The position numbers and the translations under genes are program-made. A stretch of 64,000 nt of DNA from Schmidtea nova (Eukaryota). The DNA lies in assembly GCA_044892505.1 (NCBI GenBank), contig CM097883.1, positions 232,376,001 through 232,440,000 on the forward strand. Direction: 5' to 3'. A model generated the notes under the pieces. It saw nothing but the letters and a program-made list of their open reading frames with translations. It was not told where the DNA came from and ran no database searches. Below are positions 1 to 44,064 of this stretch, in pieces; the stretch's first letter is position 1; each line of letters opens with the position of its first letter.

Positions 1-1385
1 GGAAACATGACCCAATTCCCGTCTGGTTTCTGATATAATGGTCCGTATGCATTACTGCAATTGAAAGGGTTTGGTTCAAAACTAACTGGGTTAATGATTC
101 TTGTCACTGGTTGTACATATCTTATTTTCCCTTTATATTCAATTTCCAATTCGTTGGTACATTGTCCTTGTCGTATTCTGGTCGTTGGTGCTAGGTTTGC
201 TTGTGTCTTTTGGCATATATATACATACATAACTTCTCCAACTACTCTTCCAAAATGACCTTCGTTAAGTGGTAATAATGGCATCGCACTATCCGGGTTT
301 GTAATTGCTACTGCTAGTTTCGTCTTTAATATTTCTCTGTTCAATATACAGTCGTTGTTAATGAGATCGTAGTATATTTTTTCCATTGATGCTTGGCCTT
401 TATGAAATAAAAAATCTAATTTGTTATTTAAATATACGTGCAATTTGATGTCTGTAGTGTCTATCTTGGGCTTTGCATTTGGTGCTGCTTGTCTTGATAC
501 ATAAATACCTGGATAATTTGTTTCTAACATAGAAACACCACATTTTAATGCCGGTTTTCCTTTTACAAACCTCATTCCTATATTTGCGTTTGATGTAACC
601 AATACTGTTGGCGTCTCTCTCATTCTCACCTCTTTTTCTTGTACTTTAGTTGTGAACGGTTTCTCTCCTTTTACTGTCTCCTGTAGACGTTTTCCTCTTG
701 CTACTTCATCATCCTCTTCTTCCTGAAAGATTTTTCCTTGTACCTCGTCGAACTCTGCTTCCTTTAATAATTGTAATTGGCATTCATTTGCTTTTGCTCT
801 GTATGTTAAAGTTGACATACCGGTTTGACAAGTACTGGCTTCAATTTTGCACATTGATAACGTCTTCATTTCTCCTGTTGCTGGGTCAAAATATGCTTCA
901 TACGCTTTTAATTCTACCGTATATGTGTCGATCACTACCATGTTAGTTGCTGGTACTCCAAATATTGGATATGTTGCTCCTTGACAGTAACCTTCTCCTC
1001 CTGTGATAGCTCCTGCTACATAATATGTTTGTTGTAGTATTACTCCAGCTTTTCCTCTTATCTTTATTCGATCTCTTGTTTCGACTTCTCCATGTTTAAA
1101 CAATTTATTGCAATCTTCTCCTTGTAACATTATCGCTTCTCTTTCCGTTCCTGGCATTACGATTGCAGAGTAGTGGCGATGTCCACAATAAAAAGCAAAT
1201 CTTGTTTTATATATTTTACATTCATTAACTGTTGTCTTTATTAAGTCGGCTTCCTGATATACGTGATATATTTGTTTACTATGTAATACTTTTAATTCTG
1301 TTGGAGTTGCATCTTTGCATTGTTCTGTTCCTCTTAATGAATATTTTTCTCCTAATGCCATCTGGTCGCAATCAAATACTTCGAA
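1..1385 (-). other. Chuvirus-type / gB-like (class III) envelope glycoprotein ectodomain (partial)
   Basis: xFDC start after a signal-like segment, YVYQ-like HVYQE, CK...YCG.H..IV motif, and a LYxxxxxxxC.L...IL...P...G....GEV....C motif typical of chuvirus-like glycoproteins found in LTR elements. Confidence 0.75.
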
Positions 1386-4300
1386 CGCCGTTGCTCCTTC
1401 AATGCTAATTAGCCATATTAATATCATCATTATGATTGAATTCAGGTTTAGTGAAGGTTTTCCACTTCTTGTTCCTGACTTTTCTTTTTCTAATTCTCCT
1501 AAAATTTCTTCAAATTTCTTTTTCATATTCTTTGCTTGACTGTTTCTTTGATTCGTTTTAGCAAATGTTTCCCATCCTCCTTTACTGATGACGTATGGTT
1601 CTATTTCTTTTGCTATGATGCTTGCCGTATTTTTGATATGTTTCTCTATTGCCGTAGATTTTGGATTACCTCTACTCAATGTTAATAAGTTATAAATTGT
1701 ATACGCAATTGCTATCACATATTTATTATCGTTTTCTGCATCTTCAGTTAACCTCTTTATCAACGTTGTGGTCCCTTGCCAATCTAAATGGCTTGATTTT
1801 GTCTTCTCTTTTATCAGTTCGGGTAAGATTGGTGCGATTGCGCTATGTAATGCTTTAGCCTTGTCGCTTATTTCGTTTATTCTCCACCATTTTTTCAATT
1901 CTGGATCAATTATCGCCAATATTTCCATTAGTGTTTTTGATATCCATCCTTCACCTTGACATTTTTGCGTTCTTTCCTGGTCTTTTGCTTCTGCTATTTT
2001 GTTGAGTTTCTTTAAACATAATTCCCATTTCTCTTGTCTCCTTTCTTCTTTTGTTTTGTTGATTACATTGGCTGGATCTGTCTTTGGTCTACCTCTAGGT
2101 CGTCTATCCATTGTTGTACCTGTTTCAATCAATCTGGTTTCTCGTCCAGTTTCTTCTGTAACATCTCTTGGTTCATTATTTTTCTGTTCCCACCATTTTT
2201 CCATTTCTTGTGTTAATCGTTCGTTTTCTGTATTTGCTCCTCTTGTTTCTTCTTCAGAGATTTCGTTCACTTCTTCTATTTCTATTTCTTGCTCAACTTC
2301 ATCTTGGGTATTGATTGCTTGTGACGTTGTGGGTAACTCTTGTACTCTTTCGAAAATATTATTGCCTTTTTCTTTTGTCAATTTTGCTAATTCTTCTAGC
2401 ATGTCATCACTGTCTGTTAAGATTTCTTCTGCATCGTATGGTTGTGGTCGAGTTCTTTCTTGGGTTTTAGTTGGTGTTGTTTCATACTGTCTTGCGCTTG
2501 TTCCTGGCTTTATCTGCATCGTCTTCCTTAGATTCTGAGTATCTCCACTTTCTTTTATTCTTTTCTCTTTAAGTTTTAATGGTTGACCTGCTATTGCGTC
2601 TACTGTTAACGTATTTGCCAGTTCTAACTGTGCTGGCGTTATCAAAATTTCCATATCGTTTTCTAGTGATCGTCCTTGATGTTGTAGATGAAATGGTGGT
2701 TCATATTTTAATCTCTTTTTAACATCTCGAATTTTTTCGGTTAATTTTACCCAAAGCTCTTCCTTTTCTCGATCTGGATATATTATCCTTAAATGTATTT
2801 TCTGCGGTGGTTCTTGGGAGTTTTCTTGGTTTCTCCATTTCTTGATTACATTGTCTAATTGTTCTGGGCACCACTCGTTAACTCGTTTATATTCTGCTAC
2901 TACCTTGGCTACTTTTCTTAAACTGATTATATCTTCGCCGCCTGCTACAAAGAATTCGGCTAATCCTTTGATCGTTCGCCTTTTTCCTTGTACATTTCCT
3001 TTTAGTAATTCAATAAGTTCGTCAGCTTTTCGTCTTTGCGTTTCTAACCATATTGCTGCGGTTTCTGGTCCATCCAAATCTGTTGGCATGACTTTTCTTG
3101 TCACCATACAAATTCTTCCAATTTCTGGTTCATATTTATCTTCCATTTCTGGTCTAAATTCTTCTTCATATATACCTCCTTTTGCTTTCCAGCATTTCTC
3201 TTTAACATCCCAGTGTTTCTCTACTGGTGTTAATCGGCGTTCGTTGAAGTTTAATTCTCCTAATACATTTTCCCATTCTGGCTGTATCTGCCATCTTCGA
3301 TAAATTTCTATTATTTGTCTTAGTTTGTGCATCGCTTCTCTTTGACGTTCTTGTCTCCTTTTTTCGTCTTTTGGTGTTTCTCTTGGTGTATCATCCATTC
3401 TGATAACATGAATTGTTTGGTAATTATCCCATATACCAATTTTATATAATCGTCTCTCATCATGATCCCCTAGTACGTGTTCATTATATTTCATGATGAT
3501 ATCGTCTACCAATTCGTCTTCTTTTTCCCGTTGTAATAAGGTTTCATTGATAACATCAACTAATTCTTCTATTGTACAATCCGCGATTACTTCAATTTCT
3601 TTTGTGTCTTCGTTTGGTAATTTCACTTTGATTTTTAAATCTCCTATTTCTCCTCGTTTAAACATCGCTTTTCCCATTTTCGCGATCACTCTCCAAGTCT
3701 TGTATGACGAATGTCTCGTATGGCTGGTATCTCGTATATTTTCGATGCATTGTTTTAATTTCTCATATTCAGTTTTCGTTAATTCTTCTCTATTCTTGTC
3801 GATTTGTTGAATAATTTGTTCTATTAGTGAATTTAAATTTTCTCTGAGAATTCTTTCTTTCCTTTCTACTAACTGAGGTTTAATTCTCATCTCAAAACAC
3901 ATATTTGCTTCCTTTGCGATTTCTTGTAAATTTTCCTCTTTCTTATTGTCGCATATTGATAATGTTGTTATCTCTCCTGGCCATATGCCTGTTTCTACCA
4001 AATGCGTTGCTCGTCTTACAAGTTCATTTCCTGAATATATGAATTTGTTTTTATATGAACTTCCCAATCTGTCTTCTATCCATCGATAAATTTCGTTTGT
4101 GCATGGAGATTTGATCCAAATTCTTGGTGAACATTCGTTTATTTCTATTAAAATTATGTATTCATGGAGTGGTTCTTCTAATAGTTTGACGATGTATCCT
4201 GATAATATCTCTATTTCACGACTTTGTAATCGTTCTTTATAGTTCATTCGGAATACTGCTCTTATAAATTTTCGATATCGCTTCTTATCAATAAATTCTT

Positions 4301-6314
4301 CGTTATAAATCACTTCTAACGCATTATCTAATAGTTTCTGAATTTCATCTTCTTTAATTTGTATATTTTCTGGCGTCTTCGCTACTTCTATCTTGTTGTC
4401 TTCATTTTCTGGTTCTTTTAGCATATCTCCTGCTAAACTACTGACATCACTGTCACTTTCTACATCTGAAAATTCTCTAGTTAAGTTTCTTAACATGTTT
4501 ATATGTGCTGTCTGTTCTACTTTATCTGGTACATTTTTTGGTGGTATCTCTTCTTTTTTGTCATTGTTTTCTGATTCTTCTATTTGGTCTCTTCGTTTTT
4601 CTATCTCCATTGCTTTTCTCTGTTTGATTTTCTCTTCAAATATCTTCAATGCTCTACTTTTGACTTTTGTTACTGGTTTTGATTTCTCTTCATCGTTATT
4701 TTCTTCTATTTCTTGGATAACTGTGACTTTCATTTTATTCATTGGTACTCCTAAATCTTTCCATATGTCGGTTGGTTTCAATTTTATTGCTGCTTCGTCT
4801 TCTGTCTGTAAAATTGCTTCTCGGGGTAGTTTCGTCGTTCCCGGAATCGTCTTATTTACTTTATTAATTAATACTCCTACTTCCTCTTTTTCATCATATT
4901 CAAATTGAAATACATGATCGTTTGGCATGACTACCAACATCCTTTTTTGTTCAATAACTTCTTCGTTTTCTTGTACTATTTCTTTTTGGTTTTCTTCATC
5001 TTCCGGATTTGGGTTTATCCGGTTTGTTTCTGGTTCAATATCTTCTTTGTTATCTCTTGTTTGCTTCGTTGCTCTCATCATATTAATTCTCAATGGTTGT
5101 CGTTCTCTTTCTTGTCGTTTCTGTTCGTCTTCTCTTTGTATTCTTGCCCATTCTTGAGCATGTCGTGCTTGACTTTCTCGATTTAGTCGTTCATTTTCAC
5201 TTTCCACTTTTCTCATCATATTCATTTGTTGTTGATTCGTTTGTTGATTTCCTCTCGGTGTATTATTTATTAACTCTGTCAATCTCTGAACTTCTTGTAA
5301 TAAATGTATTTCTTTGGTGGTACTTTTATTCTGGTTATAATTACTCTGTTGATTTTCAAAATTCTGACGGTTTCCGTTATTCTGTTGATTCGCATAACTT
5401 TGTCGATTTCCGTTGTTCGACCAATTCCTTTGTTGGTTGTTTTGTTGTTGGCAGTTCTTTGCCATATGACCTGGTTGTCCACAGTTATAACATGAATTCA
5501 GGTAACATCTACTTTCCGAATGTCCTTTTCTTCCACACTTTTTACAATTTAAATTCGCGAAACATTCTTGTTGCCAATGTCCTAACTTTCCACAGGTTTG
5601 ACATTGCTTTGTCTGTCCTTGCGTATTATAATTATTTTGGTTTCCGAAATTTTGTACTTTGTTTCCTTCATTTCTCCTTTGAGGTGGTGGTCGATTTAAT
5701 TGTTGTGAGTTCGGAATATGGTTATTTATCTTCATTGCTTGTTCGTTTTGTGTCGTATCCATTGCTAGGTAAATTCTTCCTTCACTTCCGATCATATGTA
5801 ATTCAAATCTGTTGGCGATTTCCAACGCTTCATCTATTGTTTTACAACCTTGGCATCCAACTTGTGCTCTTATATCGGGTCTTCTCAATCCCCCCACAAA
5901 AATTGCTGCCATTAATTCTGAACTCATTGGACTATTTTGATTAAATGCTAATTTAGCCAATTTCTTTAATTCACTTGCATATACTGCATTTGATTCATTA
6001 ACTTTCTGCTTCCTCATGGAAAATTCTGTAAACGCTTCATTTAATACTTTATTTATTCCAAACGTTTGCTGGAAAAAATTCTTTATCTTTTCCCAACTAT
6101 CGAGTTGATCATCTGAATTTTTTGCTTCTAAATATAAGTCTAACGCACTGTCTTTTAAATATAACTGAATTCTGCTCCTTATCGTTTCTGGTTTCCATTT
6201 ACATACTTCTACAAATATACCAAATTCTTTTAAAAACGTTTCCAACTTGCTGGCATCTCCATTGAATGGTTCTCCAGTAAATTTATCTTTGATTTCTTCT
6301 TTATGTTCGTTCAT
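1..6314 (-). CDS. Gag-Ubl-Ubl-Bcl2-like-Env polyprotein (partial; open frame extends upstream to 6773 and runs off the window at base 1)
   Basis: Manual check of this minus frame found no stop from 6773 to 1 (2257 codons). First in-frame ATG is at 6314 (MNEHKEEIKDKFTGEPFNGDASKLETFLKEF, Gag-like). Knuckles CQTCGKLGHWQQEC, CKKCGRKGHSESRC, CYNCGQPGHMAKNC at ~5455-5605. Hydrophobic segment IIMMILIWLISIEGATA at 1386-1440. Ectodomain begins FEVFDCD and includes ECKIYKTRFAFYCGHRHYSAIV and DCILNREILKTKLAVAITNPD...GEVMYVYIC. Confidence 0.9.
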   Translation of the reverse strand, partial: MNEHKEEIKDKFTGEPFNGDASKLETFLKEFGIFVEVCKWKPETIRSRIQLYLKDSALDLYLEAKNSDDQLDSWEKIKNFFQQTFGINKVLNEAFTEFSMRKQKVNESNAVYASELKKLAKLAFNQNSPMSSELMAAIFVGGLRRPDIRAQVGCQGCKTIDEALEIANRFELHMIGSEGRIYLAMDTTQNEQAMKINNHIPNSQQLNRPPPQRRNEGNKVQNFGNQNNYNTQGQTKQCQTCGKLGHWQQECFANLNCKKCGRKGHSESRCYLNSCYNCGQPGHMAKNCQQQNNQQRNWSNNGNRQSYANQQNNGNRQNFENQQSNYNQNKSTTKEIHLLQEVQRLTELINNTPRGNQQTNQQQMNMMRKVESENERLNRESQARHAQEWARIQREDEQKRQERERQPLRINMMRATKQTRDNKEDIEPETNRINPNPEDEENQKEIVQENEEVIEQKRMLVVMPNDHVFQFEYDEKEEVGVLINKVNKTIPGTTKLPREAILQTEDEAAIKLKPTDIWKDLGVPMNKMKVTVIQEIEENNDEEKSKPVTKVKSRALKIFEEKIKQRKAMEIEKRRDQIEESENNDKKEEIPPKNVPDKVEQTAHINMLRNLTREFSDVESDSDVSSLAGDMLKEPENEDNKIEVAKTPENIQIKEDEIQKLLDNALEVIYNEEFIDKKRYRKFIRAVFRMNYKERLQSREIEILSGYIVKLLEEPLHEYIILIEINECSPRIWIKSPCTNEIYRWIEDRLGSSYKNKFIYSGNELVRRATHLVETGIWPGEITTLSICDNKKEENLQEIAKEANMCFEMRIKPQLVERKERILRENLNSLIEQIIQQIDKNREELTKTEYEKLKQCIENIRDTSHTRHSSYKTWRVIAKMGKAMFKRGEIGDLKIKVKLPNEDTKEIEVIADCTIEELVDVINETLLQREKEDELVDDIIMKYNEHVLGDHDERRLYKIGIWDNYQTIHVIRMDDTPRETPKDEKRRQERQREAMHKLRQIIEIYRRWQIQPEWENVLGELNFNERRLTPVEKHWDVKEKCWKAKGGIYEEEFRPEMEDKYEPEIGRICMVTRKVMPTDLDGPETAAIWLETQRRKADELIELLKGNVQGKRRTIKGLAEFFVAGGEDIISLRKVAKVVAEYKRVNEWCPEQLDNVIKKWRNQENSQEPPQKIHLRIIYPDREKEELWVKLTEKIRDVKKRLKYEPPFHLQHQGRSLENDMEILITPAQLELANTLTVDAIAGQPLKLKEKRIKESGDTQNLRKTMQIKPGTSARQYETTPTKTQERTRPQPYDAEEILTDSDDMLEELAKLTKEKGNNIFERVQELPTTSQAINTQDEVEQEIEIEEVNEISEEETRGANTENERLTQEMEKWWEQKNNEPRDVTEETGRETRLIETGTTMDRRPRGRPKTDPANVINKTKEERRQEKWELCLKKLNKIAEAKDQERTQKCQGEGWISKTLMEILAIIDPELKKWWRINEISDKAKALHSAIAPILPELIKEKTKSSHLDWQGTTTLIKRLTEDAENDNKYVIAIAYTIYNLLTLSRGNPKSTAIEKHIKNTASIIAKEIEPYVISKGGWETFAKTNQRNSQAKNMKKKFEEILGELEKEKSGTRSGKPSLNLNSIIMMILIWLISIEGATAFEVFDCDQMALGEKYSLRGTEQCKDATPTELKVLHSKQIYHVYQEADLIKTTVNECKIYKTRFAFYCGHRHYSAIVMPGTEREAIMLQGEDCNKLFKHGEVETRDRIKIRGKAGVILQQTYYVAGAITGGEGYCQGATYPIFGVPATNMVVIDTYTVELKAYEAYFDPATGEMKTLSMCKIEASTCQTGMSTLTYRAKANECQLQLLKEAEFDEVQGKIFQEEEDDEVARGKRLQETVKGEKPFTTKVQEKEVRMRETPTVLVTSNANIGMRFVKGKPALKCGVSMLETNYPGIYVSRQAAPNAKPKIDTTDIKLHVYLNNKLDFLFHKGQASMEKIYYDLINNDCILNREILKTKLAVAITNPDSAMPLLPLNEGHFGRVVGEVMYVYICQKTQANLAPTTRIRQGQCTNELEIEYKGKIRYVQPVTRIINPVSFEPNPFNCSNAYGPLYQKPDGNWVMF
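1555..1990 (-). other. Bcl-2-like domain within the polyprotein
   Basis: Helical region ending EIEPYVISKGGWETF (1563-1601; compare Bcl-xL HLEPWIQENGGWDTF). Distance from the BH1-position Asp (LTEDAEN) to the GGW Trp is 57 aa versus 56 in Bcl-xL. The NWGR motif is not conserved. Confidence 0.6.
2601..2798 (-). other. Ubiquitin-like domain 2 within the polyprotein
   Basis: IHLRIIYPDREKEELWVKLTEKIRDVKKRL..FHLQHQGRSLENDMEI aligns by eye with ubiquitin TLEV..TIENVKAKI..RLIFAGKQLED. Confidence 0.6.
3399..3638 (-). other. Ubiquitin-like domain 1 within the polyprotein
   Basis: LKIKVKLPNEDTKEIEVIADCTIEELVDVINETL...IIMKYNEHVLGDHDERRLYKIGIWDNYQTIHVIR follows the ubiquitin beta-grasp pattern (MQIFVKTLTGKTITLEV..DTIENV...LIFAGKQLEDGRTLSDYNI..TLHLV). 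Confidence 0.6.
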
Positions 6315-7519
6315 TTCGATTCCGCTGTCTTGTGTCGTTTTACTCTCGTTTCCTCTTGTTTCACTAGTATGCTCGTTATTCGTTTCGTTTGAATTATTAT
6401 CAATTTCTGCTTCTACTTCTTCTGTGTTTATTGACTCGTTATCTGATGCTTCCGTATTATTATAATTATCGTAGGTTTCACTTGAACTTTCTTCTGTTTC
6501 ACTTTCGTTAGTTTTTGTTAATTTATTGTTTTCGATTTTTGACTTTTCTACTATTACTCTTCTTGATTTACTTCCTTTAGGATTTGTTTTCTTTGTAACA
6601 CTGGTTGCTCTTTGTTTCGATTTATTTCTCTGTGAATTATCAACTTTTTTGATTGTAGCACTAACTGCTCTTGATCTCAATTTATTTCTTTGTGAATTAT
6701 TAACTTCTTGATTTTTAACTGTTCTTGATCTCGATTTACTTCTCTTTAATTTATCAATTTTTCTGTTTCTCTGTTATCGTATTCTGATTGATTGGTTGGT
6801 TGTTTGACTTGTTCTGTTCCGTGTATCTAAATTAAAAAGTCACTTCAACGATACATCATTGTTATCGTTGCGCTTTTATTCCTCATTATTGGGTTTCCAT
6901 TGTTTCCCCATTCCCGGTTTCCCCTTTATTTAAGTCTATTTAAATTATCTATTCACTGGTAACAATTATCTATATGGTCGTAATAATTATCTATCGTTAT
7001 CAAATAAATTCATTACTTTTCCCTCAGTCTCCCAATTTAATTTGTCGCTCAAACGCTTTAATTCCCTTGAGCTCTCCTGACTCAATTATCATTTTATTAC
7101 TATTCATTATATCATCATTACTCACTATTCTCACTAATCAACTCTAATTTCTCATCATTACTCACTATTCTCACTATTTCTACCGGTTTTTTTCCGGTCA
7201 ACTCTAATTTCTCTTATTCCTATTTCTACTCGTATGCATACTGAATCTCTAGTTTACTTAATCATCTTTACTCGTATTACTCAATTTCTAGTGCTCATTA
7301 CTCTTAACATCGTCGACGATTACAACTTGGTTTTATTTCATCTCTGTTGCTTATTTATTCCCTTGGCTCTCTACGCCATAATTTAATTTATTCACTTGAC
7401 TCTTCTCTAATTTATTCACTTATTCACTTGGCTCTTCTATGCCCTAATTTAATTTATTCGCTTGACTCCATGGCCCTTCTCTAGGGAAAATACCTTCTTA
7501 GAGAATAATCACCTGCTTA

Positions 7520-8480
7520 GTTAGGCCTTTGACCCTTCTTTCGGGGTAATCTTAAATAATCTGACTTGTTTGCTCTTGACCTTTTTTTTACAAGGTATTT
7601 AACTAATATGGCTTGTTTGCCCTTGACTCTTCTTTCAGAGTATTTGACTAATATGGCTCGTTGGCCCTTGACCTTTTTGTACAAGGTATTTAACTCATCT
7701 GGCTTGTTTGCCCTTGACTCTTCTTTCCGAGTATTCAACTAATATGGCTCGTTGGCCCTTGACCTTTTTGTACAAGGTATTTACTCATCTGGCTTGTTTG
7801 CCCTTGACTCTTTTTCCAGAGTATTCAACTAATATGGCTCGTTGGCCCTTGACCTTTTTGTACAAGGTATTTAACTCATCTGGCTTGTTTGCCCTTGACT
7901 CTTCTTTCAGAGTATTCAACTAATATGGCTCGTTGGCCCTTGACCCTTCTTTCAGAGTAATTAACTAATATGGCTCGTTGGCCCTTGACCCTTCTTTCAG
8001 AGTAATTAACTAATATGGCTCGTTGGCCCTTGACCCTTCTTTCAGAGTAATTAACTAATACGGCTCGTTGGCCCTTGACCCTTCTTTCAGAGTAATTAAC
8101 TAATACGGCTCGTTGGCCCTTGACCCTTCTTTCAGAGTAATTAACTAATACGGCTCGTTGGCCCTTGACCCTTCTTTCAGAGTAACTAATATGGCTTATT
8201 TGCCCTTGACCCTTCTTTCAGAGTAACTAATATGGCTTATTTGCCCTTGACCCTTCTTTCAGAGTAACTAATATGGCTTATTTGCCCTTGACCCTTCTTT
8301 CAGAGTAACTAATATGGCTTATTTGCCCTTGACCCTTCTTTCAGAGTAACTAATATGGCTTATTTGCCCTTGACCCTTCTTTCAGAGTAACTAATATGGC
8401 TTATTTGCCCTTGACCCTTCTTTCAGAGTAACTAATATGGCTTGTTTGCCCTTGACCTTTTTATACAAGGTATTTAACTA
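7520..8480. repeat. Tandem repeat array in the element 1 leader (about 20+ units of 41-45 bp, core GCCCTTGAC)
   Basis: Alternating dimeric units at ~7590-7920, 45-bp units from 7921, and 41-bp units from ~8190. Confidence 0.95.
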
Positions 8481-9075
8481 ATCTCTTTAACCGGTTAACC
8501 GCACTTATCCACTTCACTAGTTATCATTCAGCTGAATTATCTCTATTTTTATAAGAGTTATCACATTAACTTTCATTCTACTTATTTACTTAATGTTCTT
8601 TCGACTTCCACTGATCAGTGTTCTATTCTCTCTTTTTTATTTGTATTTTCTGCATGCACTTAAACCTCATTAGATTGTTCCTACCTTTCACCCCAACCAA
8701 AACATACAAAAAGATCGCATTGGTCTACTAATGCAAGATGTGGTGATCAGTCACATCACAAAAGCTTTCCAATATCCGCGATGGGCCCCTTTCTATACAT
8801 CTCGGGTAAGTTGATCAGTTGGTTCCTCCCAATGGGTGCTTAACGGACTACTCGTGAGCAGCTCAAAAATTATTTATAAATATCAATTGTTATTATGATT
8901 TCTGTCATTGCCATTATCAATTTTCATTATACATTCTCGTTGTCAATTCTCATATTAATTCTCATTATGAATTCTCATATTAACTCTTATTATGAATTAT
9001 CATATTAATTCTCCTTATCAATTAATTCATTATCCTTTATCACAAATCATATTATTCAATTTCAAAATTTATTTA

Positions 9076-9537
9076 TTATAAATACACAATAATTCTTTCG
9101 TCTATTTCGAGATTGCACATCGGGCATTTGTCGCAATTGGCTGCACAGATTCCACAAAACCGAAAATGTCCACATGGTAAAAACATGATTTTATTCTCTC
9201 TTTCTCGACATATGTAACACAGTTTAAATTTCTTAGCTGTCTCAGTCCCTTGTATCGTCCACTTGTTGTATGTTGGAGTTAATTGTTGCTCTAACTGTCT
9301 GCATTTTATGTTTACATCAGCATTTTCTAATCTCGTTCGGTACCACTTGTATCTAGTTGTTATATCTATTTTGTCTACTCTTTCCATTATTTTTATCAGC
9401 TCTGTTGTCTCTTCGGTTTGTGTCATGGGTTCTTTGAATCCGGATTCTCTTATTCGACTTATTTTCTCACATAGTTCATCGTATGTTTTGTTTTCCGTGT
9501 TTAAGAATTCTTCTATTTCTTTTAATTTATCGTTCAT
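9076..9537 (-). CDS. Accessory protein with C-terminal IAP-type RING finger (C3HC4), putative E3 ligase, no BIR
   Basis: CYICRERENKIMFLPCGHFRFCGICAANCDKCPMC followed by a hydrophobic tail IIVYL*, as in IAP RINGs. Acceptor TTATTTAG|CA-ATG upstream; AATAAA overlaps the stop. Confidence 0.85.
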   Translation of the reverse strand: MNDKLKEIEEFLNTENKTYDELCEKISRIRESGFKEPMTQTEETTELIKIMERVDKIDITTRYKWYRTRLENADVNIKCRQLEQQLTPTYNKWTIQGTETAKKFKLCYICRERENKIMFLPCGHFRFCGICAANCDKCPMCNLEIDERIIVYL

Positions 9538-10244
9538 TGCTAAATAATTGATATTGTTAATATGTTTGCTGTTTTATTTAGTATATAAAAAAATAAAGAT
9601 TTCAATATCTTGTTTCTCTATTTGTTCAATTTGTGTTGGTCAAAAGTAGTGGTACATTTCGTTTTCTGATGTTAAACCTCTCCCTGTTTCATCAAATTGT
9701 CGTCCCGACATATTTATTTATGTTTATTTATTTTATTTTAATATCAATTATTAATCGTCTGTTGTTATATTTATTCAATAGTTGTTTTTCAAAATTCTCT
9801 GTTGATATTGTTTTCACTTTTATACAAAAATCAATTATGTTTTCGGCTGAGGGGCACTTTAAAACTCCTGGTTATTATTGGATTCAATTTTTCGCACAAA
9901 AACCAATTTGATCCCGGCTGAGCCCCCAAATTTATGTTGTTGGTTTCGGTTGGGTTAAAACAAAAATACAAAATGAATTAATAATTATTTTTAAACGCTC
10001 TAGGGATTCCTCCATCCAAAACCTCACATAAAATGCTTACATATCACACGAGCACCCTCGATCATTTCCCTGTAATAATCGAGTTGGAAATGTGCAAGGT
10101 GTTTGAACAATGATGGGCAGGTGAGCTCTATTGCTAAAACTACTCCCCATTTATGTTCACGGGTTCGTCTCGCTGCCGATAGAAGGACTTACGCTTTAAT
10201 TTTAATCTATCCGCATCCATTTATCTTTCATTTCAATTATTTCT

Positions 10245-10350
10245 TTTCGCCCCCTTTCGTTACAATATATTTCAACTTTCAACTTTTCTTTCAGCCCCCT
10301 TCTTTACAATATATTTCAACCTTCAACTTTTCTTTCAGCCCCCTTCTTTA
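10245..10350. repeat. About 2.5 copies of a ~43-bp repeat (cagcccccttctttacaatatatttcaac..ttcaacttttcttt)
   Basis: Direct repeats visible in the sequence. Confidence 0.8.
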
Positions 10351-10554
10351 CAATATCAACAAATAATATTTTTACGATATGTTATTTCTTTAATGCTATT
10401 ATTGTTCATTACTTTATGTCAATCTTTTATTTATAATCTACATTTAATTTAATTTAAAAATCCTTTAATAAAATACTTTAGTTCATATACTTTACAATAA
10501 AATAAATACAAACAAAAATTATTTAATAAGCAAAATTTACAAATCACAAAATTT

Positions 10555-11145
10555 CTATTCAAAATATTTGGAAATGTCTTCATCTGATATTGTAAAATTC
10601 ATGTTCAAATCAATTTCTGGAATGTTGTTTGATCGTTGTGCCAATTGCTGGAGAACTTGTTTCTTCCAGCGACGCTGACGCGCGCCCATCTTACTCTTCT
10701 TTTTCTTTTTGACTTCTGGAATTATTACGTCCTTTGGTGTGATTGAGGCCGCCGTTGCTTGAACCTGAGATGGTTCCTCTGTGCTTGTTCCTTTTGAGCA
10801 TCCTGCCTTTTCGTCAGCCCAATGCTGGTAAGTGATTGGTCGAATGAGCTGGCTGAGCTCTTGAGTTAGATATGATGCCGTTACAGATTTTAGGCATTTC
10901 TTTAATTCCATCTTCGTTGCGTCCAATTCCATTTGCAGTTCGCTGTTAGCTCGCTGTGAGCGTTGAGTTTTGGTGATTTGCATTTTCATTTGGTCTGGAC
11001 TGAACCAGCTTTTCTTTAGGTTGGAAATTATTCCATCGGCTTCTTTTATTTTCTCTGACTTTCGCAGCATTTCCTTTTCCAGGCTGCGAATTATTCTCCA
11101 GGCTTTGTCTAATTCGGCTTGATTGGTTGCTGTGTTTGCTGACAT
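10555..11145 (-). CDS. Accessory protein of unknown function: coiled-coil N-terminal half plus basic KKKKKSKMGARQRRWKK segment
   Basis: Intact 196-aa ORF on the same strand as gag, with acceptor TTTTAG|AAA-ATG just upstream. Confidence 0.7.
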   Translation of the reverse strand: MSANTATNQAELDKAWRIIRSLEKEMLRKSEKIKEADGIISNLKKSWFSPDQMKMQITKTQRSQRANSELQMELDATKMELKKCLKSVTASYLTQELSQLIRPITYQHWADEKAGCSKGTSTEEPSQVQATAASITPKDVIIPEVKKKKKSKMGARQRRWKKQVLQQLAQRSNNIPEIDLNMNFTISDEDISKYFE

Positions 11146-11873
11146 TTTCTAAAATTCAAAATGGTTTATTGACATGAAGTTAGTAGTCTTGATTCGAACG
11201 ATTCTCATACCTTTGACAATTGGTAATTGTTAATTTAGGAAAAGAAAATGATGTACCTATTACGCTTTCAACACTGTCGCTATGTACAGCGATCAGATAC
11301 ATTTATTTCATAATGCATTTTATTTATTTACGCCTGTGCTATATACAGCATTCAGGATAAGAAAATTATTAAAATAAACTAAGATCCACTGCCCTATGTA
11401 CAGGGTTCAGGATAAGCAATTATGTTTAATTATTTATGTGGAATGTTTGATCCTATAGCCTATTGCTGCTATGTTACTTGCGTAGTAGATCACTACGCTA
11501 TTAAATTATCGATTTTTATGTTATTGTTAAAATTACATTTTGTACAAATTCTTAACCCTGCATCTGCCGCTCTATGCCCACAAACCCCAGATGTGACAAT
11601 CGAAAAATATAGGTTAACATTCGGTGAATTCCAATATAAAATCAGATTAGAAAAATCACAGCTATATCTGTCTCAAACTAAAATCAAAATTCAACTTAAC
11701 TATAAACTCTAAAAATTTAAATCGATTATAAAATAAAACTTCAACTGGTTATACTATCCAGTGAAAATAAGGTTAAAATCATTGTTAAATAAGAATTCCT
11801 ACCCTCGTCACGGCGCTTTACACCGGTCGGACGGCCTAACTGTACGGAGCAGTCGTTTCTACTCGGCACAGTA

Positions 11874-11881
11874 TGCCTCCA
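11874..11881 (-). promoter_or_regulatory. Candidate primer-binding site TGGAGGCA (tRNA-Thr-like 3' end)
   Basis: Directly follows ...AACA at the candidate LTR end. Only 7-8 nt match metazoan tRNA-Thr 3' ends as I recall them. Confidence 0.35.
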
Positions 11882-12514
11882 TGTTCCCGATTGCACGGTG
11901 AACGGAGCCCCTTAAATCATACGTAAGTTTATACTATAAATACGGTATATAGATAATATATATATTCGCCTCCTTCCACTGATTGCACAGTGGAAGAAGC
12001 TCGACCCAAAAATTACTTCTAAAAAATATACTTGTTAGTTGTTAGTATAAACTGATACTGTTACCTCCTTCCACCGATTACACGATGGAAGAAGCTTAAT
12101 AAAAGATATATAATATATAAATATAGTCATCTCCTTCCACTGATTTCACAGTGGAAGAAGCTTGGTTAAATTCTATATTCGACAAAAATTTAAAAAATCA
12201 TATATCATAAAATATTTTATTAACAATTAACTACAATGGTCAATGACAGATAATCACAAAATTTATAAATTCAATAAAACAAAAATACTCATACCTTTCA
12301 AGTTCTGTTCAAATATCTTTCAGTATCAAATAATCACAAGATCATAAAATCACAAAGTGTTTGTTTTAAAACTTTCAAACTTTAAAAACTTTCAACTTAA
12401 AAACTTAAAAACTGCTTAAATGCTGCTTAAATTTTAACTGAATCTGGATCAGTATATATACTGATCAGATCAGATCACTGACCAATCAGCATCAATCTGA
12501 TGGTCATCAATACA
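11882..12514 (-). repeat. Candidate 5' LTR of element 1 (633 bp, TGTA...AACA)
   Basis: TGT/ACA termini; CCAAT at 12482; TATA inside a perfect palindrome GATCAGTATATATACTGATC (12447-12466); AATAAA at ~12216-12221; followed by TGG. The partner LTR is not in the window. Confidence 0.55.
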
Positions 12515-14890
12515 ATAAAATCAAAAATAAAATCAATTTTTTTAACAAATATAATTTTCATTTTCTTGTTTTAATTTACCGATTTTTTTATTAATTCTTC
12601 TTCTTTTTTACTTATTTATTTCGCTTTCTTATTATTTAAATATAATTAATTATCATTTTTCTTTAACACTTTTACATTTTCTATTTACATTCTTCTAAAT
12701 TTTGATAGAAAATTAATATTCTTTATTACATTTTAATTTGTTTTTACTGATATTTTCATAATTATTTTTATTTTAATTTATTCTTATTTTCTCTCTTATT
12801 ATTATTATTTTTCATGCTAAATGTGGACCAAATGGTGGATCCAACAATATATATATATATACAAAAATATTTTCAATAAACTTTTGACTTCTTTCTGCTT
12901 TTCTTTCCCATAACAATGATTTCTTTTAAATTTGTTGTAATCGTAAAGGAATAATTTAAAATATAATATAAATAATAATAATTTTCTACATTGAAAATCG
13001 TGAAATATTTTGTTCAATCAATTCAAAGAAAGCCTAATTTGTTTTATACTAAAATAAATGAATTAAAATTCGGCTTGATTTAATTTGTCATAATTGTGAT
13101 TACAGTTTCTTGGCAAGCTAAATTCTGTCAAAAATAATTTTGTTTTTTATTTTTCTCTCATCGGTTTCCTCAGTGAAAATCTATCTATGGGCGTTCTTTT
13201 GTTGAGAGTTTGTTCTTTGTTTTATTTTTTGAAATTCAATTGTTTTCTAAATATTTTTATTTCATTTTATTTATTATTAATTTAACAAATATTTTTCAAC
13301 TTTGAAAGGCTATATAGAAATTATTATTTTCATTTGTTATGGAATTAATAAATGTGAGAAATTAAAAAGTCGAGATGTAGAGAAAAGAATTCAGTTAAAA
13401 ACATAAATTTATATTATTTACAATTTTCTTTCTGTCAAAATTGATGGCAAATATAATCTTATACTCAAACTCAAAAATATCATAATTTAATTACTCACAT
13501 ATTACGTATATGCGTGTTATTTTAATTATAAATATGTAAAAAATTATATTTCAAATGGCATACTAGTTTAGAGCCCATTTGGCAGTCATCAATATTGTGT
13601 ACAAATCAAACCTTGTAGACATACAGACAAGTCCGAGAACCTAAAAATGTTAATGCTGAAAATTCGTGTTAAATAAAAACAAAAGCAATTACTGATAAGC
13701 AATAAAAATAAATAAAGATAAAAAATTGTACAAGTGTCAATGGTGAAAAATCATATTTAATTAAATTTTGATTTATTTAGCAATAAAATGCTTTATAAAG
13801 TTATTTGTAATTAATTAAAAGGGGTTTAGATATTAAAAATATATTTATACAATATTTTGTTACTTTAATTGTAAATTATAAAATAATAAAAGTTTAATTT
13901 TTTAAAGTAACTTTATTAAATATCTAATTTATTCATAACATTATGAAATATATTCGTTATTTTATTAGACCGAAATATTATTGAAGAAATTATGGAAATT
14001 ATCTGACAATAAATTCCATTTCATTCAATATCTCACACATTAAAATTATATTTTTTCTTACAATTATTATATTTAAAGAAAACTAAAAGATAATATTTTT
14101 AGTTAAAATTATTGACTTTAATTTATTTTCATTCTTTTAAATTATAGATCAAACATGTTTTGAATTTAAGACAAATTTTCAAAGAAAAAGTGTGCCAAAA
14201 TTATGTGTCAAATTGAATGAAAAAAGAAAAAACATTGAAAATAAACAAAGTCCTAAAATAATTGATGAATGTTGAACAGATAAATAATTCACTATTGTTT
14301 TGTAATTATTTGTTTGTATATATTTAATTAAAATTATCGTAACAAATTTTTATTTAAAAATGTTAAGTTAGATTTTTAAAAATAAATTATTTAAAATCAT
14401 TAAATATAATTCATTAAAAATATTTATTTAAAATTTATTAAAATTTAATGTTTAAATTTCAAAATTATAAAACTTAAATGATTTATATTTCGGGTTGACT
14501 CCTCGGGTTTATCTCAAAGGACATTCAGAATTTAGGCCATTTTTACCTCATCCTATTTTGTTACATATTGTCACAAAAGAATTTGATAAATAAATATAAA
14601 TAAAATTATTTGTTATATTAAATAAATAAATAAATAAATATTGTTAATGCCGTATTTTATTATCGCTATTTATTATTTTTCATGTATTTTATGGTATAGA
14701 GACCCCCCAGTTGTATTTGGGATGGTGTTTACCAATTATTATTATTATTACTATCATTATTAAAATTCAAATTTTTAAATTGAATTAAATAGCTTACTAG
14801 AGTAATATACTATAGTAAGCTAATGACAAATAAAAAAATCAATTTTATATTTTGATATTTTAATCCGGCGTATAAACGAATTAAACAAGT

Positions 14891-36034: not shown

Positions 36035-37737
36035 CTGTAAAATCCCGAGTATAAGCTGCAGCTAATACGTACATTAAGGCAACATTTCTGAATTGCAGCT
36101 AATATGATGTGCAGCTTATACAACTAAAAAAGAAATCAAATCGAAGATAAGATTATTTATTTCAATTTTCATCATCACACTCCTCAAAACCATCACATTT
36201 TTCATTGTCAATAAAAGTGAAATTTTCTAGTAATTCTACAATGTTTGGATCAGACTCGTTCACATTCATTTCATTTTCTTCAATTTCAAGAACAATGTTC
36301 GTCTTCACCGAATGCAACACAAAAACCATTCAAAATGGTGGAAATGTTAACATCTTCCCAAGAGGAAACAATCCATTCGAAAAAAGTATTCCAGTCAGCT
36401 GCTTTCATATTTCCGGACTTAGTATGTTTGATGTTTTCATAATCTTTAATGATCCAATCCTTCCACTTCTTGCGCAATTTTGACTTGAACGAAAGGTTAA
36501 CAGTAAGATCTAATGGCTGCACCTTTGATGTCAATCCGGCAGGTATGAAAGCTACTTTGGATTCCTTCTTAATTTTATCAAGTGTAGTACTGACAAGATG
36601 TGAGATATGCATATCAAATAAAAGCAATGATGGTACTTTTGGATCTTGGTTCCATGGTGTCTTTGGAGGTAATGTAATTCGACTCTTCCATACTTTCTTG
36701 AGCCATATCTCAAGAGTTTCATGGTTCATCCAACCAGAGCCATTAGCTGCAATAACAAGCTTTGATTCAGGAATGCAAGTCTTTGGATGTTTCTTTGTGC
36801 CCAAAATAACAAAAGGCGGAAGTTTAGTACCATCTTTGAGAACACATAGATTGACGGTAAATCGTTTTTTCTCATGTCCTGTAGTTTTAATTCGGACCTC
36901 CTTGGCACCTTTAGTCTCAATTGTGTACCCTAAAGGCATGTCACATTGAACGGACACTTCATCAAAATTACCAATTTGATTATCTGGCAAATCCTTCTTT
37001 AAATCTGCGATGGTGCTTCTAAACTTGGCCATCTGAAATTCCCAATCTTTCGGTAATTGTTGCTTCGTGGTAGGCCGTCGAACAAAAATATTCTTGCGTT
37101 TCATGAAATTATCAGTCCATTGAGAGCTCGCGACAAATCCTTCAATTTTCATCTCTTTGGCAATTACTTGTGCCTGTAAACGAATTCGAACAACCGACAC
37201 TTGAAGATCTCGTTCACGTTGAATTAGGATCCATTCGTGTAATTTCGTTTCCAATTCCGGATATCTAGCGTTACCACCACGCAATGATCTTCGATTTGGA
37301 TTCATTGCTTTGATAACAGACTCTTGGGCGATCCATCGTCGAATAACAGTTTTATTAATATCATATCGTCTTGCAACCTCCCGTATGTTTCCTAACTGAC
37401 GAGCTAATTCAATAACTTCTTTTTTCTTTGCTGAACTAAAAGATCTTCGTTGTTTCTTTTGTTTTTGTTCCAAATCGTTATCCATTTTAATCAAGGATTC
37501 AAAAAGTGCAATAAACAATATAAACGATATAAACGATTAAAACAAAATTGTTATTGTTTTTTTAATGATATTTGATATGTGTTTTTTAATGATAGGTTGC
37601 TGATTTTAAAATCAGGAGTTTCCAACGCAAATGGTGCAGCTAATACGTGCTGTGGTTTATACGACTAAAAAATACATTTTTATAAAAATGTCATCTGCAG
37701 CTAATACGCGCTGCAGCTTATACTCGGGATTTTACAG
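36035..37737 (-). mobile_element. pogo/Tigger DNA transposon, complete ends
   Basis: 28-bp perfect TIR ctgtaaaatcccgagtataagctgcagc; TA duplications at 36033-34 and 37738-39. Excision restores the env frame (FNTNYTPN). Confidence 0.95.
36286..37518 (-). CDS. pogo/Tigger transposase (CENP-B-like HTH, HTH_Tc5, DDE_1)
   Basis: RRSFSSAKKKEVIELA HTH; YPELETKLHEWI; FVASSQWTDNFMKR; catalytic NFDE, LLFD..SH, QPLD. The acidic tail appears to continue in a shifted frame. Confidence 0.92.
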   Translation of the reverse strand: MFIALFESLIKMDNDLEQKQKKQRRSFSSAKKKEVIELARQLGNIREVARRYDINKTVIRRWIAQESVIKAMNPNRRSLRGGNARYPELETKLHEWILIQRERDLQVSVVRIRLQAQVIAKEMKIEGFVASSQWTDNFMKRKNIFVRRPTTKQQLPKDWEFQMAKFRSTIADLKKDLPDNQIGNFDEVSVQCDMPLGYTIETKGAKEVRIKTTGHEKKRFTVNLCVLKDGTKLPPFVILGTKKHPKTCIPESKLVIAANGSGWMNHETLEIWLKKVWKSRITLPPKTPWNQDPKVPSLLLFDMHISHLVSTTLDKIKKESKVAFIPAGLTSKVQPLDLTVNLSFKSKLRKKWKDWIIKDYENIKHTKSGNMKAADWNTFFEWIVSSWEDVNISTILNGFCVAFGEDEHCS

Positions 37738-40618: not shown

Positions 40619-40727
40619 TGTGAGATAATAAGACAATTTAAATATTTATTCAGTCAATAAATCTACTTATTTAAACAACTTTATTTTCTTTTATAAATCA
40701 TTATTTTAAATTATTCTTCTTTATACA
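40619..40727 (-). repeat. Element 3 3' LTR
   Basis: Identical to 44077-44185. Confidence 0.97.
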
Positions 40728-41611
40728 TCTCCCCGAGATTCTAACAAATCTTCATTCCTGTGCCTCAAGTCAGCTACATGACGCGGCATTGCCACGGTTC
40801 CGTAATCGACGATTGCTTTATGCGGAGACAGCAGCTTCATGATTCTTCCTCTCATCCAGGAAGATGTACATGGTTGATTTTGCGCGGGTTTCACCCACAC
40901 CTTGTCGTTAATCTGAAAGCCATTGTCTATTTGTTGAGCCGTTCTTTTCGTTTCATTAAATCGAAGTCTTAGGTCATAAGCGTAAATGCCTTTTATCGGA
41001 GGTCTGGAAGAACCATTTACTGGTGTATTATTGTACCAGTAAATTGCTTCTTGCACTGAGCATTCCGATCGCGTGACTGCAGCTTTTATTGTTTTATGGT
41101 TCCTCTCAATAATGCCGTTGCCTGCTGGTCTATTAGCGGATCTGAATTCAGTTCTAATTCTCCACCTTTTCATTAGAGAAGTGAAAGTTTCTGACCTAAA
41201 CGATAAGTAATTGTCCAACAGAAGCTCGTCAGGAGGTCCTCTTTCATAAAATACCTGTTCCAACTGTTTGCAAATTTCGTCTGCGCTTTCGTTTCGTATT
41301 TCTCGCCAAATCGCAAATCGAGAAGGCCCGCAATCTATGATTGTTAAAAATTTTCTTTGATGTAATTTAGTCACATCGATAGCTAATCGTTTCCAAGAAT
41401 CTTTTACCTCTAATTGCCCTTTGCTGATCTTAACCGGATGAGGGTCTATTGATTGACATTTGTCACACTTTTCGACTATCTCTTTTAACTCATTTTGAGA
41501 AAGGTTAATTCCTGCTTCCTCGGTCAAGAACCTCAACCGATCTCCTCCGAAATGGCTTAATTTGTGTATTTCAACTGCGTTCTTGATGGGATCTTCACCC
41601 GGGTCTAGCAA
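40721..41611 (-). CDS. Element 3 integrase (in frame with RT/RH but behind one TGA at 41639-41)
   Basis: HKLSHFG...CDKC zinc-binding motif; LAIDV, LLLDN, GIIERNH catalytic DDE; stop lies inside the 3' LTR. Confidence 0.9.
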   Translation of the reverse strand: MLDPGEDPIKNAVEIHKLSHFGGDRLRFLTEEAGINLSQNELKEIVEKCDKCQSIDPHPVKISKGQLEVKDSWKRLAIDVTKLHQRKFLTIIDCGPSRFAIWREIRNESADEICKQLEQVFYERGPPDELLLDNYLSFRSETFTSLMKRWRIRTEFRSANRPAGNGIIERNHKTIKAAVTRSECSVQEAIYWYNNTPVNGSSRPPIKGIYAYDLRLRFNETKRTAQQIDNGFQINDKVWVKPAQNQPCTSSWMRGRIMKLLSPHKAIVDYGTVAMPRHVADLRHRNEDLLESRGDV

Positions 41612-41638
41612 CGCCGTATTACACGTATGTTTCGTAAT

Positions 41639-43399
41639 TCAATTTGAGGGAATTCTGGTTAATATGTCGGATTTATTTTTGTCTGTTGGAACGTATTCTA
41701 TTTCAGCCTTTATCTCATATTCAATAATTAATTCTTTAATTATGTTGAGCCTTCTTTTTACTAACATTTCTGAGGAAGCTTTAGTTGAAACCTTTCTCTC
41801 GGATGTCAAGGCATTATGTACCCAACTTACCACGGATTTGTTATCCGACATGATCTTAACAGTCTTTAAATTCCATTTGATGCATAAGTTGATGCCTTTA
41901 ACGATCGCCTCAAGTTCGCACAGGTTAATGTGCCTAACGTCCTTCTCCTTTCTCAACCAGCATGCGTCTTCCATAATATTTCCGTCGATTTCTAGCGCTG
42001 CTCCTATGGCGATAGAGCTGGCATCACACCATAAAATATTTCCTCTGTCCATTGGTGCTTTCCATATACCATGAGCTGGATCATTCTTTTCAACCTCCTT
42101 TATTAACCATTTAACTTTGTTTAGTAATTGAACGTCGATTGGCCGGTCCCATTCTCCTTCGCTTAATCGTTTGAGATAAGAGCACGCGGGTCGTAACCAA
42201 CCTGCAACTGGAAGAATTCCGGTTAATTGACCGCATAACGAATACAGTTCTCGTCTGTCCATTCTCTTTTCTTCAAATTCGTACCGGATGACATTGGCTC
42301 GGTTCCATTTTAATAAGTTATCCTCAATATGAACTGATAATCCAAGTATTCTTAGAGCTTTTGTTGATGAGGGGCGTTCAATTTCTTTCGTCATCAAGTT
42401 AAATTTTCCTAGCCAGGCTTTTACTTCTTCAGCTGGGACAACTTCTTCGTCGATAAAAATATCGTCAATGTACGCACTGGCTCCTTGTTTTATTCTGTCA
42501 TTTAAACCCAACACGTAGTTAACGATCTCTGTCATAATACTGGGAGCGATATTGATTCCGAAGCCTAGTCTTGTCAATGCATATCGCCTTCCGTTTACAA
42601 TGCATGACTGGTACTTCCACATACTCTCATCAACCCGGATTTGCATGTATGCATCAGATAAATCCAAAATCGCTATTTTCTTTCCCTTCTTTCTCCAATC
42701 TCTTATTGTTTCATTGCAAACTACTGCTTCTCCACTATAGACGTCTAAATAATGATTTAAAGCTCTAAAATCGAACACTGGCCGTATTTTGCTCTTGTTC
42801 TTTTGCATAACCGGAAATAAAGTTACTGCTCCAACAGGCTTACCGAACCGGTTTTCGTCATATTCGACTAACCATCCATTTTTGACCCACTGCTCGATGA
42901 CTTTGAGAGCCTGGCCTGCTTTGGGCTTATCTGGATCTAACTTGGAATATCGATCTGACATTGATACTGGGGGTTCTGTGTTCCAATTCCATGATACCAT
43001 CCATTCTTTGTTGAACGTTGCTTCGAAGTTCTTCCTTTGAATTAAAAAACTCTGAGCTTCGTTTCCGTTTACAGCCATAAAACATTTCAATTCACATCCG
43101 AATCTGACGTCTTCACTGATTGTCACTCCTCCTAGTGCTATAATGGCGTTCATACCTAATATGACATCATATCCCGCTATCATTTTTCTAGAAATAAAAC
43201 AGTCAATGATAAAGTACTTTCCTTCTAATTCGATTTCTGCCTTGCTCTGGCTCACTGGCAGTATTGATCCATCTGCTAGGAACACTTGAGCGTTGGGTGA
43301 TGTGATGGCTTCTCCGCGTATAATTGTTGTCGAGCAGCCGGAATCTATAAGACAAAGACGTTTTGATCCATTTATGGAAAGGAGTCTTTCTTTTAACAT
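41639..43399 (-). CDS. Element 3 protease-RT-RNase H
   Basis: LIDSGC; RPVFDFRALN; LDLSDAYMQI; RLGFG; YIDD; WCDASSIAIG; ELEA; SDN. Confidence 0.95.
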   Translation of the reverse strand: MLKERLLSINGSKRLCLIDSGCSTTIIRGEAITSPNAQVFLADGSILPVSQSKAEIELEGKYFIIDCFISRKMIAGYDVILGMNAIIALGGVTISEDVRFGCELKCFMAVNGNEAQSFLIQRKNFEATFNKEWMVSWNWNTEPPVSMSDRYSKLDPDKPKAGQALKVIEQWVKNGWLVEYDENRFGKPVGAVTLFPVMQKNKSKIRPVFDFRALNHYLDVYSGEAVVCNETIRDWRKKGKKIAILDLSDAYMQIRVDESMWKYQSCIVNGRRYALTRLGFGINIAPSIMTEIVNYVLGLNDRIKQGASAYIDDIFIDEEVVPAEEVKAWLGKFNLMTKEIERPSSTKALRILGLSVHIEDNLLKWNRANVIRYEFEEKRMDRRELYSLCGQLTGILPVAGWLRPACSYLKRLSEGEWDRPIDVQLLNKVKWLIKEVEKNDPAHGIWKAPMDRGNILWCDASSIAIGAALEIDGNIMEDACWLRKEKDVRHINLCELEAIVKGINLCIKWNLKTVKIMSDNKSVVSWVHNALTSERKVSTKASSEMLVKRRLNIIKELIIEYEIKAEIEYVPTDKNKSDILTRIPSN

Positions 43400-44064
43400 C
43401 TTTTTGGGATCGAGAGAGACTCCTGAATATTCTCGATCCCGTTGTCTTTTCCCGATTTACAATATCGGGATTGGTGTCCAAGCATTTCACACCTAGAACA
43501 TTGAATTTTTTTCTTGTTCGGACAGTTACGGGCAAAATGATTTTCATTACAAATATAACATTGCATCTTCTTTATCTTCGCCACAAAGGCAGACTGATGT
43601 CCATGAGTTAGATTCAGTCGTGAAACGATGTCACCGATTGCGTCGATCGTCGTTGATCCTTGTCGTCTCACCTCAGCTGCGATTTCTACTGGCAAGGATT
43701 TGATTATAATGTTTATTAAGAGATCTCCAGCGTTACAAGCCAGATTCTTCATTTCTGATAAATGAATGTTAATATTGTCCCCGATCTGGAATCTCTTGTT
43801 TAACAACTTGGAAAAACATGCTTCTGGGGGATCGCTGAAAGCTCGTATCAATGATATTTTAATTTCTTCATAACTAATATCTTCGTTTTTCGCTGCTTCC
43901 TTCAAGGTGATAAATGCCTTCCCCTTCATGACAGCAGGTAAAATTTCTTTTTTTCCATTGAATTTGTGAAGCTTGCATATTAATTCAAACTTATCGAACC
44001 ATTCATCGATTTTCACGGTTTCGCCGTCAAAACATTCGATTGCATTCAATATATCTTTTATCAT
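43393..44064 (-). CDS. Element 3 Gag
   Basis: FDGETVKIDEWFDKFELIC; knuckles CYICNENHFARNC and CSRCEMLGHQSRYC; ATG immediately after the PBS. Confidence 0.92.
   Translation of the reverse strand: MIKDILNAIECFDGETVKIDEWFDKFELICKLHKFNGKKEILPAVMKGKAFITLKEAAKNEDISYEEIKISLIRAFSDPPEACFSKLLNKRFQIGDNINIHLSEMKNLACNAGDLLINIIIKSLPVEIAAEVRRQGSTTIDAIGDIVSRLNLTHGHQSAFVAKIKKMQCYICNENHFARNCPNKKKIQCSRCEMLGHQSRYCKSGKDNGIENIQESLSIPKRC
43402..43408 (-). promoter_or_regulatory. -1 ribosomal frameshift heptamer C_CCA_AAA
   Basis: Correctly phased X_XXY_YYZ in the gag frame two codons before the stop; the -1 frame enters pol (PKKMLKER). Confidence 0.75.

Follow-up and report, generated by a model that had tools for sequence, protein, structure and literature searches.

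Burro and GYPSM1 are giant, gypsy-like LTR retroelements of planarians with an env placed in frame between gag and pol; they also carry ankyrin, MATH/TRAF, BIR and BCL2-like motifs as well as accessory ORFs (PMC6431247). Cargo of the BIR, TRAF and Bcl-2-like kinds has already been published for Burro elements, and the same paper carries the open suggestion that they meddle with host apoptosis and ubiquitination (PMC6431247). The "RING Zn-finger" of the Burro text is the AIR1 motif, and section 7 of that paper mentions no IAP-class RING ORF standing alone in the 5′ leader (PMC6431247). Among RING ligases, cIAP1 forms an active dimer that is built by the RING, the tail Phe and the helix before the RING, and the tail Phe of the partner subunit primes ubiquitin (PMC6349121). 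Arg is the most effective residue at the RING linchpin position, although Tyr serves there in XIAP and Asn in RBX1 (PMC12326332). Retrotransposon accessory genes with testable biochemical activity are rare. Literature searches found no paper on an LTR-retrotransposon accessory ORF encoding a RING ubiquitin ligase and, by title, none on this subject within the literature on planarian TRAF/IAP expansion.

The window analyzed here is a 64,000-nucleotide stretch of the Schmidtea nova genome (contig CM097883.1, assembly GCA_044892505.1), and its minus strand holds part of a 25.4 kb, very young LTR element. The 5′ LTR (positions 9935–12846, minus strand, 2912 bp) has TG...CA ends and lies in an (AT)n run. 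The 3′ LTR is just outside the window, the two 2912-bp LTRs are 100% identical, and (AT)n flanks both sides. The element is ordered as LTR, primer-binding site, RING ORF, non-coding block, tandem repeats and gag frame. The primer-binding site (9911–9928, minus) starts 6 nt inside the 5′ LTR end and resembles what we take to be a tRNA-Pro site. Tandem repeat arrays with units of 41 and about 45 nt occupy 7508–8542 of the leader. The polyprotein frame (3–6773, minus) encodes gag with CCHC knuckles, a long linker and a mononegavirus-type fusion glycoprotein, and it continues beyond the window with a protease and ankyrin repeats. Pfam detects Retrotrans_gag (E 9e-5, just under the cut-off), zf-CCHC, Monjiviricetes_fusion and RVP in this one frame. 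Four further ORFs follow it, one of which is a whole TRAF. The window copy lacks RT, RNase H and integrase, and these domains are found in other family A copies (Pfam) and in one family B copy (motif).

Like Burro/GYPSM1, this is a giant LTR element with a CCHC gag and an in-frame mononegavirus-type fusion glycoprotein between gag and protease (PMC6431247). Ankyrin repeats, MATH/TRAF, tandem repeats, accessory ORFs and a BIR in a sister family are also shared (PMC6431247). The TRAF differs in that the 3′ cassette encodes it as a complete ORF with RING, zinc finger and MATH. The size criterion for Burro is an internal region of up to 25 kb, and the window element, counted with its 2912-bp LTRs, reaches 25.4 kb despite its partly deleted pol. 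Ankyrin and TRAF are the Burro cargo found in the window copy, and BIR is found in family C only. A word at window position 1583, which we take to be BH2-like, could correspond to the Burro BCL2-like motif before env; it has no Pfam or PDB match. Judged from sequence, the element matches the Burro type by the published description of its architecture. The RING accessory gene adds one more piece to the reported cell-death and signaling cargo, and earlier Burro figures may already show it.

The RING accessory ORF (9076–9537, minus) has 153 codons from ATG to TAA. Placement of this ORF within the LTR was considered and rejected; it sits 397 nt inside the LTR end. The preliminary description had presented its product, from the letters alone, as an intact, BIR-less, retroelement-encoded RING protein, and each of these points was borne out. 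Pfam finds no BIR domain in the 153-aa protein, and the proposed HMMER check returned a zf-C3HC4_3 match at residues 105–147 (E 1e-11, over the cut-off). The protein consists of a family-specific N-terminal helical domain defined by conserved columns and the fold model (residues 1–104; 9226–9537, minus), a C3HC4 RING defined by Pfam, alignment and fold match (residues 107–141; 9115–9219, minus), and a C-terminal tail (9079–9114, minus) in which Tyr152 occupies the alignment column of the cIAP/XIAP tail Phe. The N-terminal part has no informative Pfam match. Eleven of its columns besides the first Met are nevertheless invariant across families A, B and C and the proteins from outside this genome. 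All eight zinc ligands are invariant in the 18 aligned rows, and the tail position is Tyr or Phe in all 18, with Phe in family C sharing the column of the cIAP2 and XIAP tail Phe. The linchpin position is more variable, being Asn in families A and B, Lys or Arg in family C, and Asp in three outside proteins. The loop-2 Pro is present in families A and B and missing from family C and from the three outside proteins.

The nearest sequences of solved structure are the XIAP RING (E 6.5e-10), followed by cIAP2, cIAP1, BIRC7 and MYLIP. A profile of 18 family members places cIAP2 (E 5e-14) and XIAP (E 1e-13) on top and MDM2/MDMX far below (E about 5e-4 to 9e-3). The ligand pattern of the MDM2/MDMX RING is C2H2C4, in contrast to C3HC4 in the RING protein. 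The RING and its tail had been likened to both IAP and MDM2; the first comparison holds through the XIAP match and the tail aromatic, and "IAP-type" is the better label because MDM2 and MDMX match the family profile only weakly. The AlphaFold model was computed from 35 rows, of which 18 are family members and 17 unrelated RING proteins. Its pLDDT is 93–95 in the RING, 79–86 in a predicted long helix (residues 73–105) that runs into the RING, and 44–60 over residues 1–60. The model RING superposes on IDOL, cIAP2 and XIAP with an rmsd of 0.8–2.0 and also matches the cIAP1 RING. In the fold search the IDOL/MYLIP RING was the top match (E 4e-7), and baculovirus IAP and large-DNA-virus RINGs matched as well, always via the RING.

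The protein resembles the IAP family (XIAP, cIAP1/2, BIRC7, baculovirus IAP2/IAP3) in its C-terminal C3HC4 RING, tail aromatic and predicted pre-RING helix, but it has its own N-terminal domain with no BIR and no detectable UBA or CARD. IDOL/MYLIP has a C-terminal RING of the same class; the RING protein lacks its FERM domain and scores lower in sequence with MYLIP than with XIAP. The BIR-less RINGs of large DNA viruses, such as invertebrate iridescent virus 6 413R, are likewise short, have a helical N-terminal part and share this class of RING, but the RING alone superposes (full-length rmsd over 20) and the virus groups are unrelated. A fused form of the RING protein was not seen in a protein search with the family alignment, where 4 of 7992 longer candidates matched, partially, over 24–56% of the query; this is weak evidence. 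In word-based protein searches, none of 11 candidates matched the single ORF, and with the family alignment 5 of 1201 candidates near the query length matched. By sequence and predicted fold, the RING is of the IAP class, closest to the XIAP, cIAP and IDOL RINGs, with the tail aromatic kept, and on the same grounds the label "IAP-class RING" is justified for the ORF product.

At least 300 copies of the RING ORF are present across three element families. The family A/B genome search listed the best 150 of 9337 candidates, and among these matches 98 have 84–100% identity (family A) and 52 have 67–71% (family B). The family C search listed the best 150 of 9474 candidates. The family C ORF has 160 aa and is homologous to the RING ORF over its full length (32% identity, E 1e-27); identities to the window RING ORF are about 70% for family B and 30% for family C. 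A single-copy host gene is ruled out by the at least 150 A/B copies among the 9337 candidates and by the linkage to the element in the A/B copies sampled. Outside this genome three full-length relatives were found (P0002, P0151 and P0154), all of 160 aa. Of the best 150 of 12,249 representatives matched, P0002 (E 1e-35) alone was a full-length relative, and its best match in this genome is family C (40%).

The ORF keeps its place in the element. All 20 further A/B copies sampled have the LTR ORF upstream, 19 of the 20 have the primer site, and the suggested linkage to gag was found in 16 of 20, within 7.5 kb downstream. The primer site also precedes the RING ORF in the one family C copy read far enough upstream. 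Among 20 sampled family C copies, the protease lies downstream in 18, gag in 1, and both TRAF and a BIR-bearing IAP within 9.5 kb in 10. The position, which in the window copy is between primer-binding site and gag, is shared by families A, B and C. TRAF accompanies the RING ORF in all three families. Family C carries the RING ORF together with a complete BIR-RING IAP, mostly without gag, and no IAP ORF occurs in the 3′ cassettes read from families A and B. Many distinct internal deletions are seen among the copies, and the leader RING ORF is always kept (L084, L147, L148, L151, L163, L165).

Purifying selection acts on the ORF in both the RING and the N-terminal part. Because the copies were picked on protein score, a choice that skews dN/dS downward and intactness upward, the absence of an internal stop from 145 of the 150 listed A/B copies and the Nei-Gojobori estimates within families are to be read together with this bias: dN/dS is 0.14 for 10 spaced family A copies (dN 0.021, dS 0.147), 0.14 for 19 family B copies (dN 0.035, dS 0.246) and 0.16 for 20 family C copies (dN 0.018, dS 0.113). 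Between-family values are less exposed to the sampling. Family A against the intermediate copy L053 gives a dN/dS of 0.08 (dN 0.079, dS 0.985), and A against B gives a dN of 0.21 with saturated synonymous sites. By dN/dS, residues 1–100 are as constrained as the RING.

An own splice acceptor and AATAAA had been ascribed to the ORF, and both are present and conserved as candidate signals. The candidate 3′ acceptor TTTAG (9540–9544, minus) lies 2 nt before the ATG. In 89 of 90 copies (49/50 and 40/40) a YAG stands 0–3 nt ahead of the ATG, alternating between TAG and CAG (3 and 7 in family B, 17 and 3 in family C); the subfamily copy L053 has no AG there. YAG within 5 nt of the first ATG is found at 15 of 20 accessory ORFs in the three families, among which orthologous ORFs are not independent. 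For comparison, YAG stands at this distance from 93 of 466 other ATGs, from 12 of 96 first ATGs in frames that are non-coding, and from 5 of 17 ATGs that directly follow a stop. The candidate poly(A) signal consists of two overlapping AATAAA (9068–9077, minus), and the AATAAA at 9077–9072 overlaps the stop of the RING ORF. AATAAA lies within 10 nt of the stop in 50/50 and 20/20 family A/B copies, although alone it is a weak signal here (48 in 12.8 kb), and AATAAA or ATTAAA occurs in 115 of 354 non-coding 66-nt windows. A poly(A) hexamer is near the stop in 12 of 17 ORFs versus a 32% background.

Three upstream ATGs lie between the primer site and the RING ORF, which makes plain scanning of the genomic RNA an unlikely route. 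Since the YAG before the ATG is kept, also at most accessory ORFs, the RING ORF is likely expressed via splicing, either in cis or with a spliced leader. Spliced-leader trans-splicing has been reported in Schmidtea, and flatworm leaders end in AUG (PMC12582326, PMC8629364). There is a precedent for competition at one acceptor (PMC4558846). We found no conserved splice donor that families A and B have in common; GTAAGT at 10192 was rejected as a donor, being not conserved in family B. In four runs of contigs of unknown kind from one study, the candidate acceptor was not among the joints listed, a listing that leaves 29 joints aside, and this speaks neither for nor against expression. By these signals, cis-splicing from an LTR donor and spliced-leader trans-splicing appear equally open. 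The acceptor-before-ATG pattern is a concrete prediction for how an element of 25–30 kb expresses many ORFs.

This is a conserved 5′-leader accessory gene of Burro-type elements, and we lean toward the reading that its product is a dimeric IAP/IDOL-class E3 acting on a host target. The LTR transcript would be spliced to the AG ahead of the ATG, with either an upstream donor or a spliced leader, and the short mRNA would end at the AATAAA by the stop and so lack the conserved leader hairpin. The RING protein would dimerize via the helix, RING and tail, and the tail tyrosine would prime E2-ubiquitin. The N-terminal helical domain, in place of BIRs, would pick the host target. The tagged host factor may be one that restricts the element, or one that controls death or innate signaling in cells with element activity. 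A host-target E3 is supported by the shared position and high copy number of the ORF, by the selection on it, and by a RING of IAP class that keeps its zinc ligands and tail aromatic and whose model matches IDOL, cIAP2 and XIAP. The neighboring cargo, TRAF in every one of the three families and a BIR-RING IAP in family C, also counts in its favor, and retention of the RING ORF in family C, where 19 of 20 sampled copies lack gag, argues for a role away from particle assembly. The variable linchpin and the loop-2 Pro missing outside A/B count against a strong ligase. Sequence does not tell which way apoptosis would shift, if it is affected. The ORF offers a direct handle on the suggested Burro meddling because it is short and intact, occurs in hundreds of copies, is conserved in families that split deeply and persists in non-autonomous copies.

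The same variable residues feed the main rival, which we consider unlikely: a weak or inactive ligase whose tail would pair it with IAP RINGs of the host or the element, blunting or redirecting them. Such a decoy or antagonist would fit the retention of tail hydrophobics and zinc ligands while the linchpin and loop-2 Pro vary, with Asp in the three outside proteins, and it would fit family C, which has the RING ORF together with a full IAP. RING-RING cross-regulation occurs among IAPs and between MDM2 and MDMX; our literature search on it found nothing. Families A and B would need a host partner, because the 3′ cassettes read show no IAP ORF. A pure RING decoy does not need an N-terminal domain as constrained as the RING, however, and the tail of the element IAP is itself extended and different.

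A broader reading, which we hold to be doubtful, is that giant planarian retroelements run a eukaryotic operon of signaling genes comprising the RING ligase, TRAF, IAP and others. Single mRNAs would be released from it through spliced-leader trans-splicing combined with internal poly(A) sites. The RING protein would be an E3 of a new type, destroying a host factor of restriction or death so that stem cells with an active copy would be favored. This arrangement would explain a RING ORF under selection even in derivatives without gag and pol. The company of TRAF in all three families also lends itself to a more improbable alternative, in which the RING protein is an E3 for the element's own proteins and tags or tunes the co-encoded TRAF, Gag or polyprotein products. 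Ubiquitination of retroviral Gag and the pairing of cIAP with TRAF2 are precedents, but cIAP binds TRAF2 through BIR1, which is absent from the RING protein, and in the sampled C copies gag is missing from 19 of 20 and TRAF was seen within 9.5 kb in 10 of 20.

The idea of an IAP that lost its BIRs was not supported. In profile comparisons nothing but the RING aligned, whether against the last 200 residues of the family C IAP or against the cIAP1 BIR3-UBA-RING chain (3t6p). The N-terminus was tried as an IAP UBA and found no support, with no alignment outside the RING to the element IAP or 3t6p. In tblastn against the element IAP, 1 of 26 listed alignments spans the whole ORF, matching the UBA-like-plus-RING end at 29% identity (E 1e-6), and it scored no better than the RING-only alignments. 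The proposed phylogeny against IAP RINGs gave no supported IAP sister: a tree of 79 rows and 61 columns, with 45 of 120 non-BIR database rows kept and bootstrap not settled, split the family into two unlinked groups with no supported sister and grouped the element IAP with three other genomic RING frames. By these comparisons the RING ORF is probably not a clipped IAP in any recent sense. That it is a truncated, decaying and functionless remnant of the element's IAP is very improbable and, on dN/dS well below 1 in both domains, largely refuted, for despite the single whole-ORF alignment and the lack of a 3′ IAP in families A and B, family C has both genes, the profile aligned the RING alone, selection is strong and few listed copies contain stops.

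The family C IAP is a high-copy ORF of 399 aa directly after TRAF (L061, L064; best 150 of 1295 candidates listed), with a BIR, a second degenerate BIR-like stretch, a UBA-like stretch identified by eye and a RING. Planarian IAP and TRAF gene counts may be inflated by such elements. The RING of this IAP groups with the short RING frames L104, L106 and L107 (G000:C2 315.68–315.85 Mb; support 99/94), and L104 also contains a frame that resembles, by eye, a family C accessory ORF. The three frames may represent a host source or an old element.

A conserved non-coding block (8634–8902, minus) with a predicted long hairpin lies downstream of the RING ORF. It has about 80% identity between families A and B (about 72% for the RING ORF) and was found in 20 of 20 A/B copies and partly in 10 of 20 C copies. 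In the predicted hairpin, 3 of 65 pairs are compensated in 10 rows. The block is a candidate packaging or export signal, and an Rfam search of 6500–13000 gave one chance match (E 0.46). The gag frame (6315–6773, minus) stays open upstream of the capsid-region Met for 153–197 codons in 20 of 20 copies that have gag, and in 19 of them this stretch is Met-free. The extension begins at an in-frame CAG in 11 A copies or after TAG in 7 of 9 B copies. It fits either a spliced-in AUG, such as flatworm leaders have at their end (PMC12582326), or initiation at a conserved ATT instead of AUG. The 3′ accessory ORFs stand in tight rows (L031:580–4231, L094:7379–9999, L100/L064/L103), with TGTA-rich words after many stops.

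The LTR contains a 196-aa ORF (10555–11145, minus) with its own TTTAG before the ATG and about 40–50% identity to its family B counterpart; it matched no family. The 3′ part of the LTR (9972–10188) starts at a conserved ATTAAA and has 74% A–B identity; its depth was about 50-fold or more above that of the RING ORF in contigs of unknown kind from one study. Elsewhere the window contains what we take, by eye, to be a 3.5-kb gypsy-like element with 109-bp identical repeats (40619–44185), a pogo/tigger-like transposase (36286–37485), hAT-like fragments (50239–53386) and a Penelope-like GIY-YIG frame (55785–56600).
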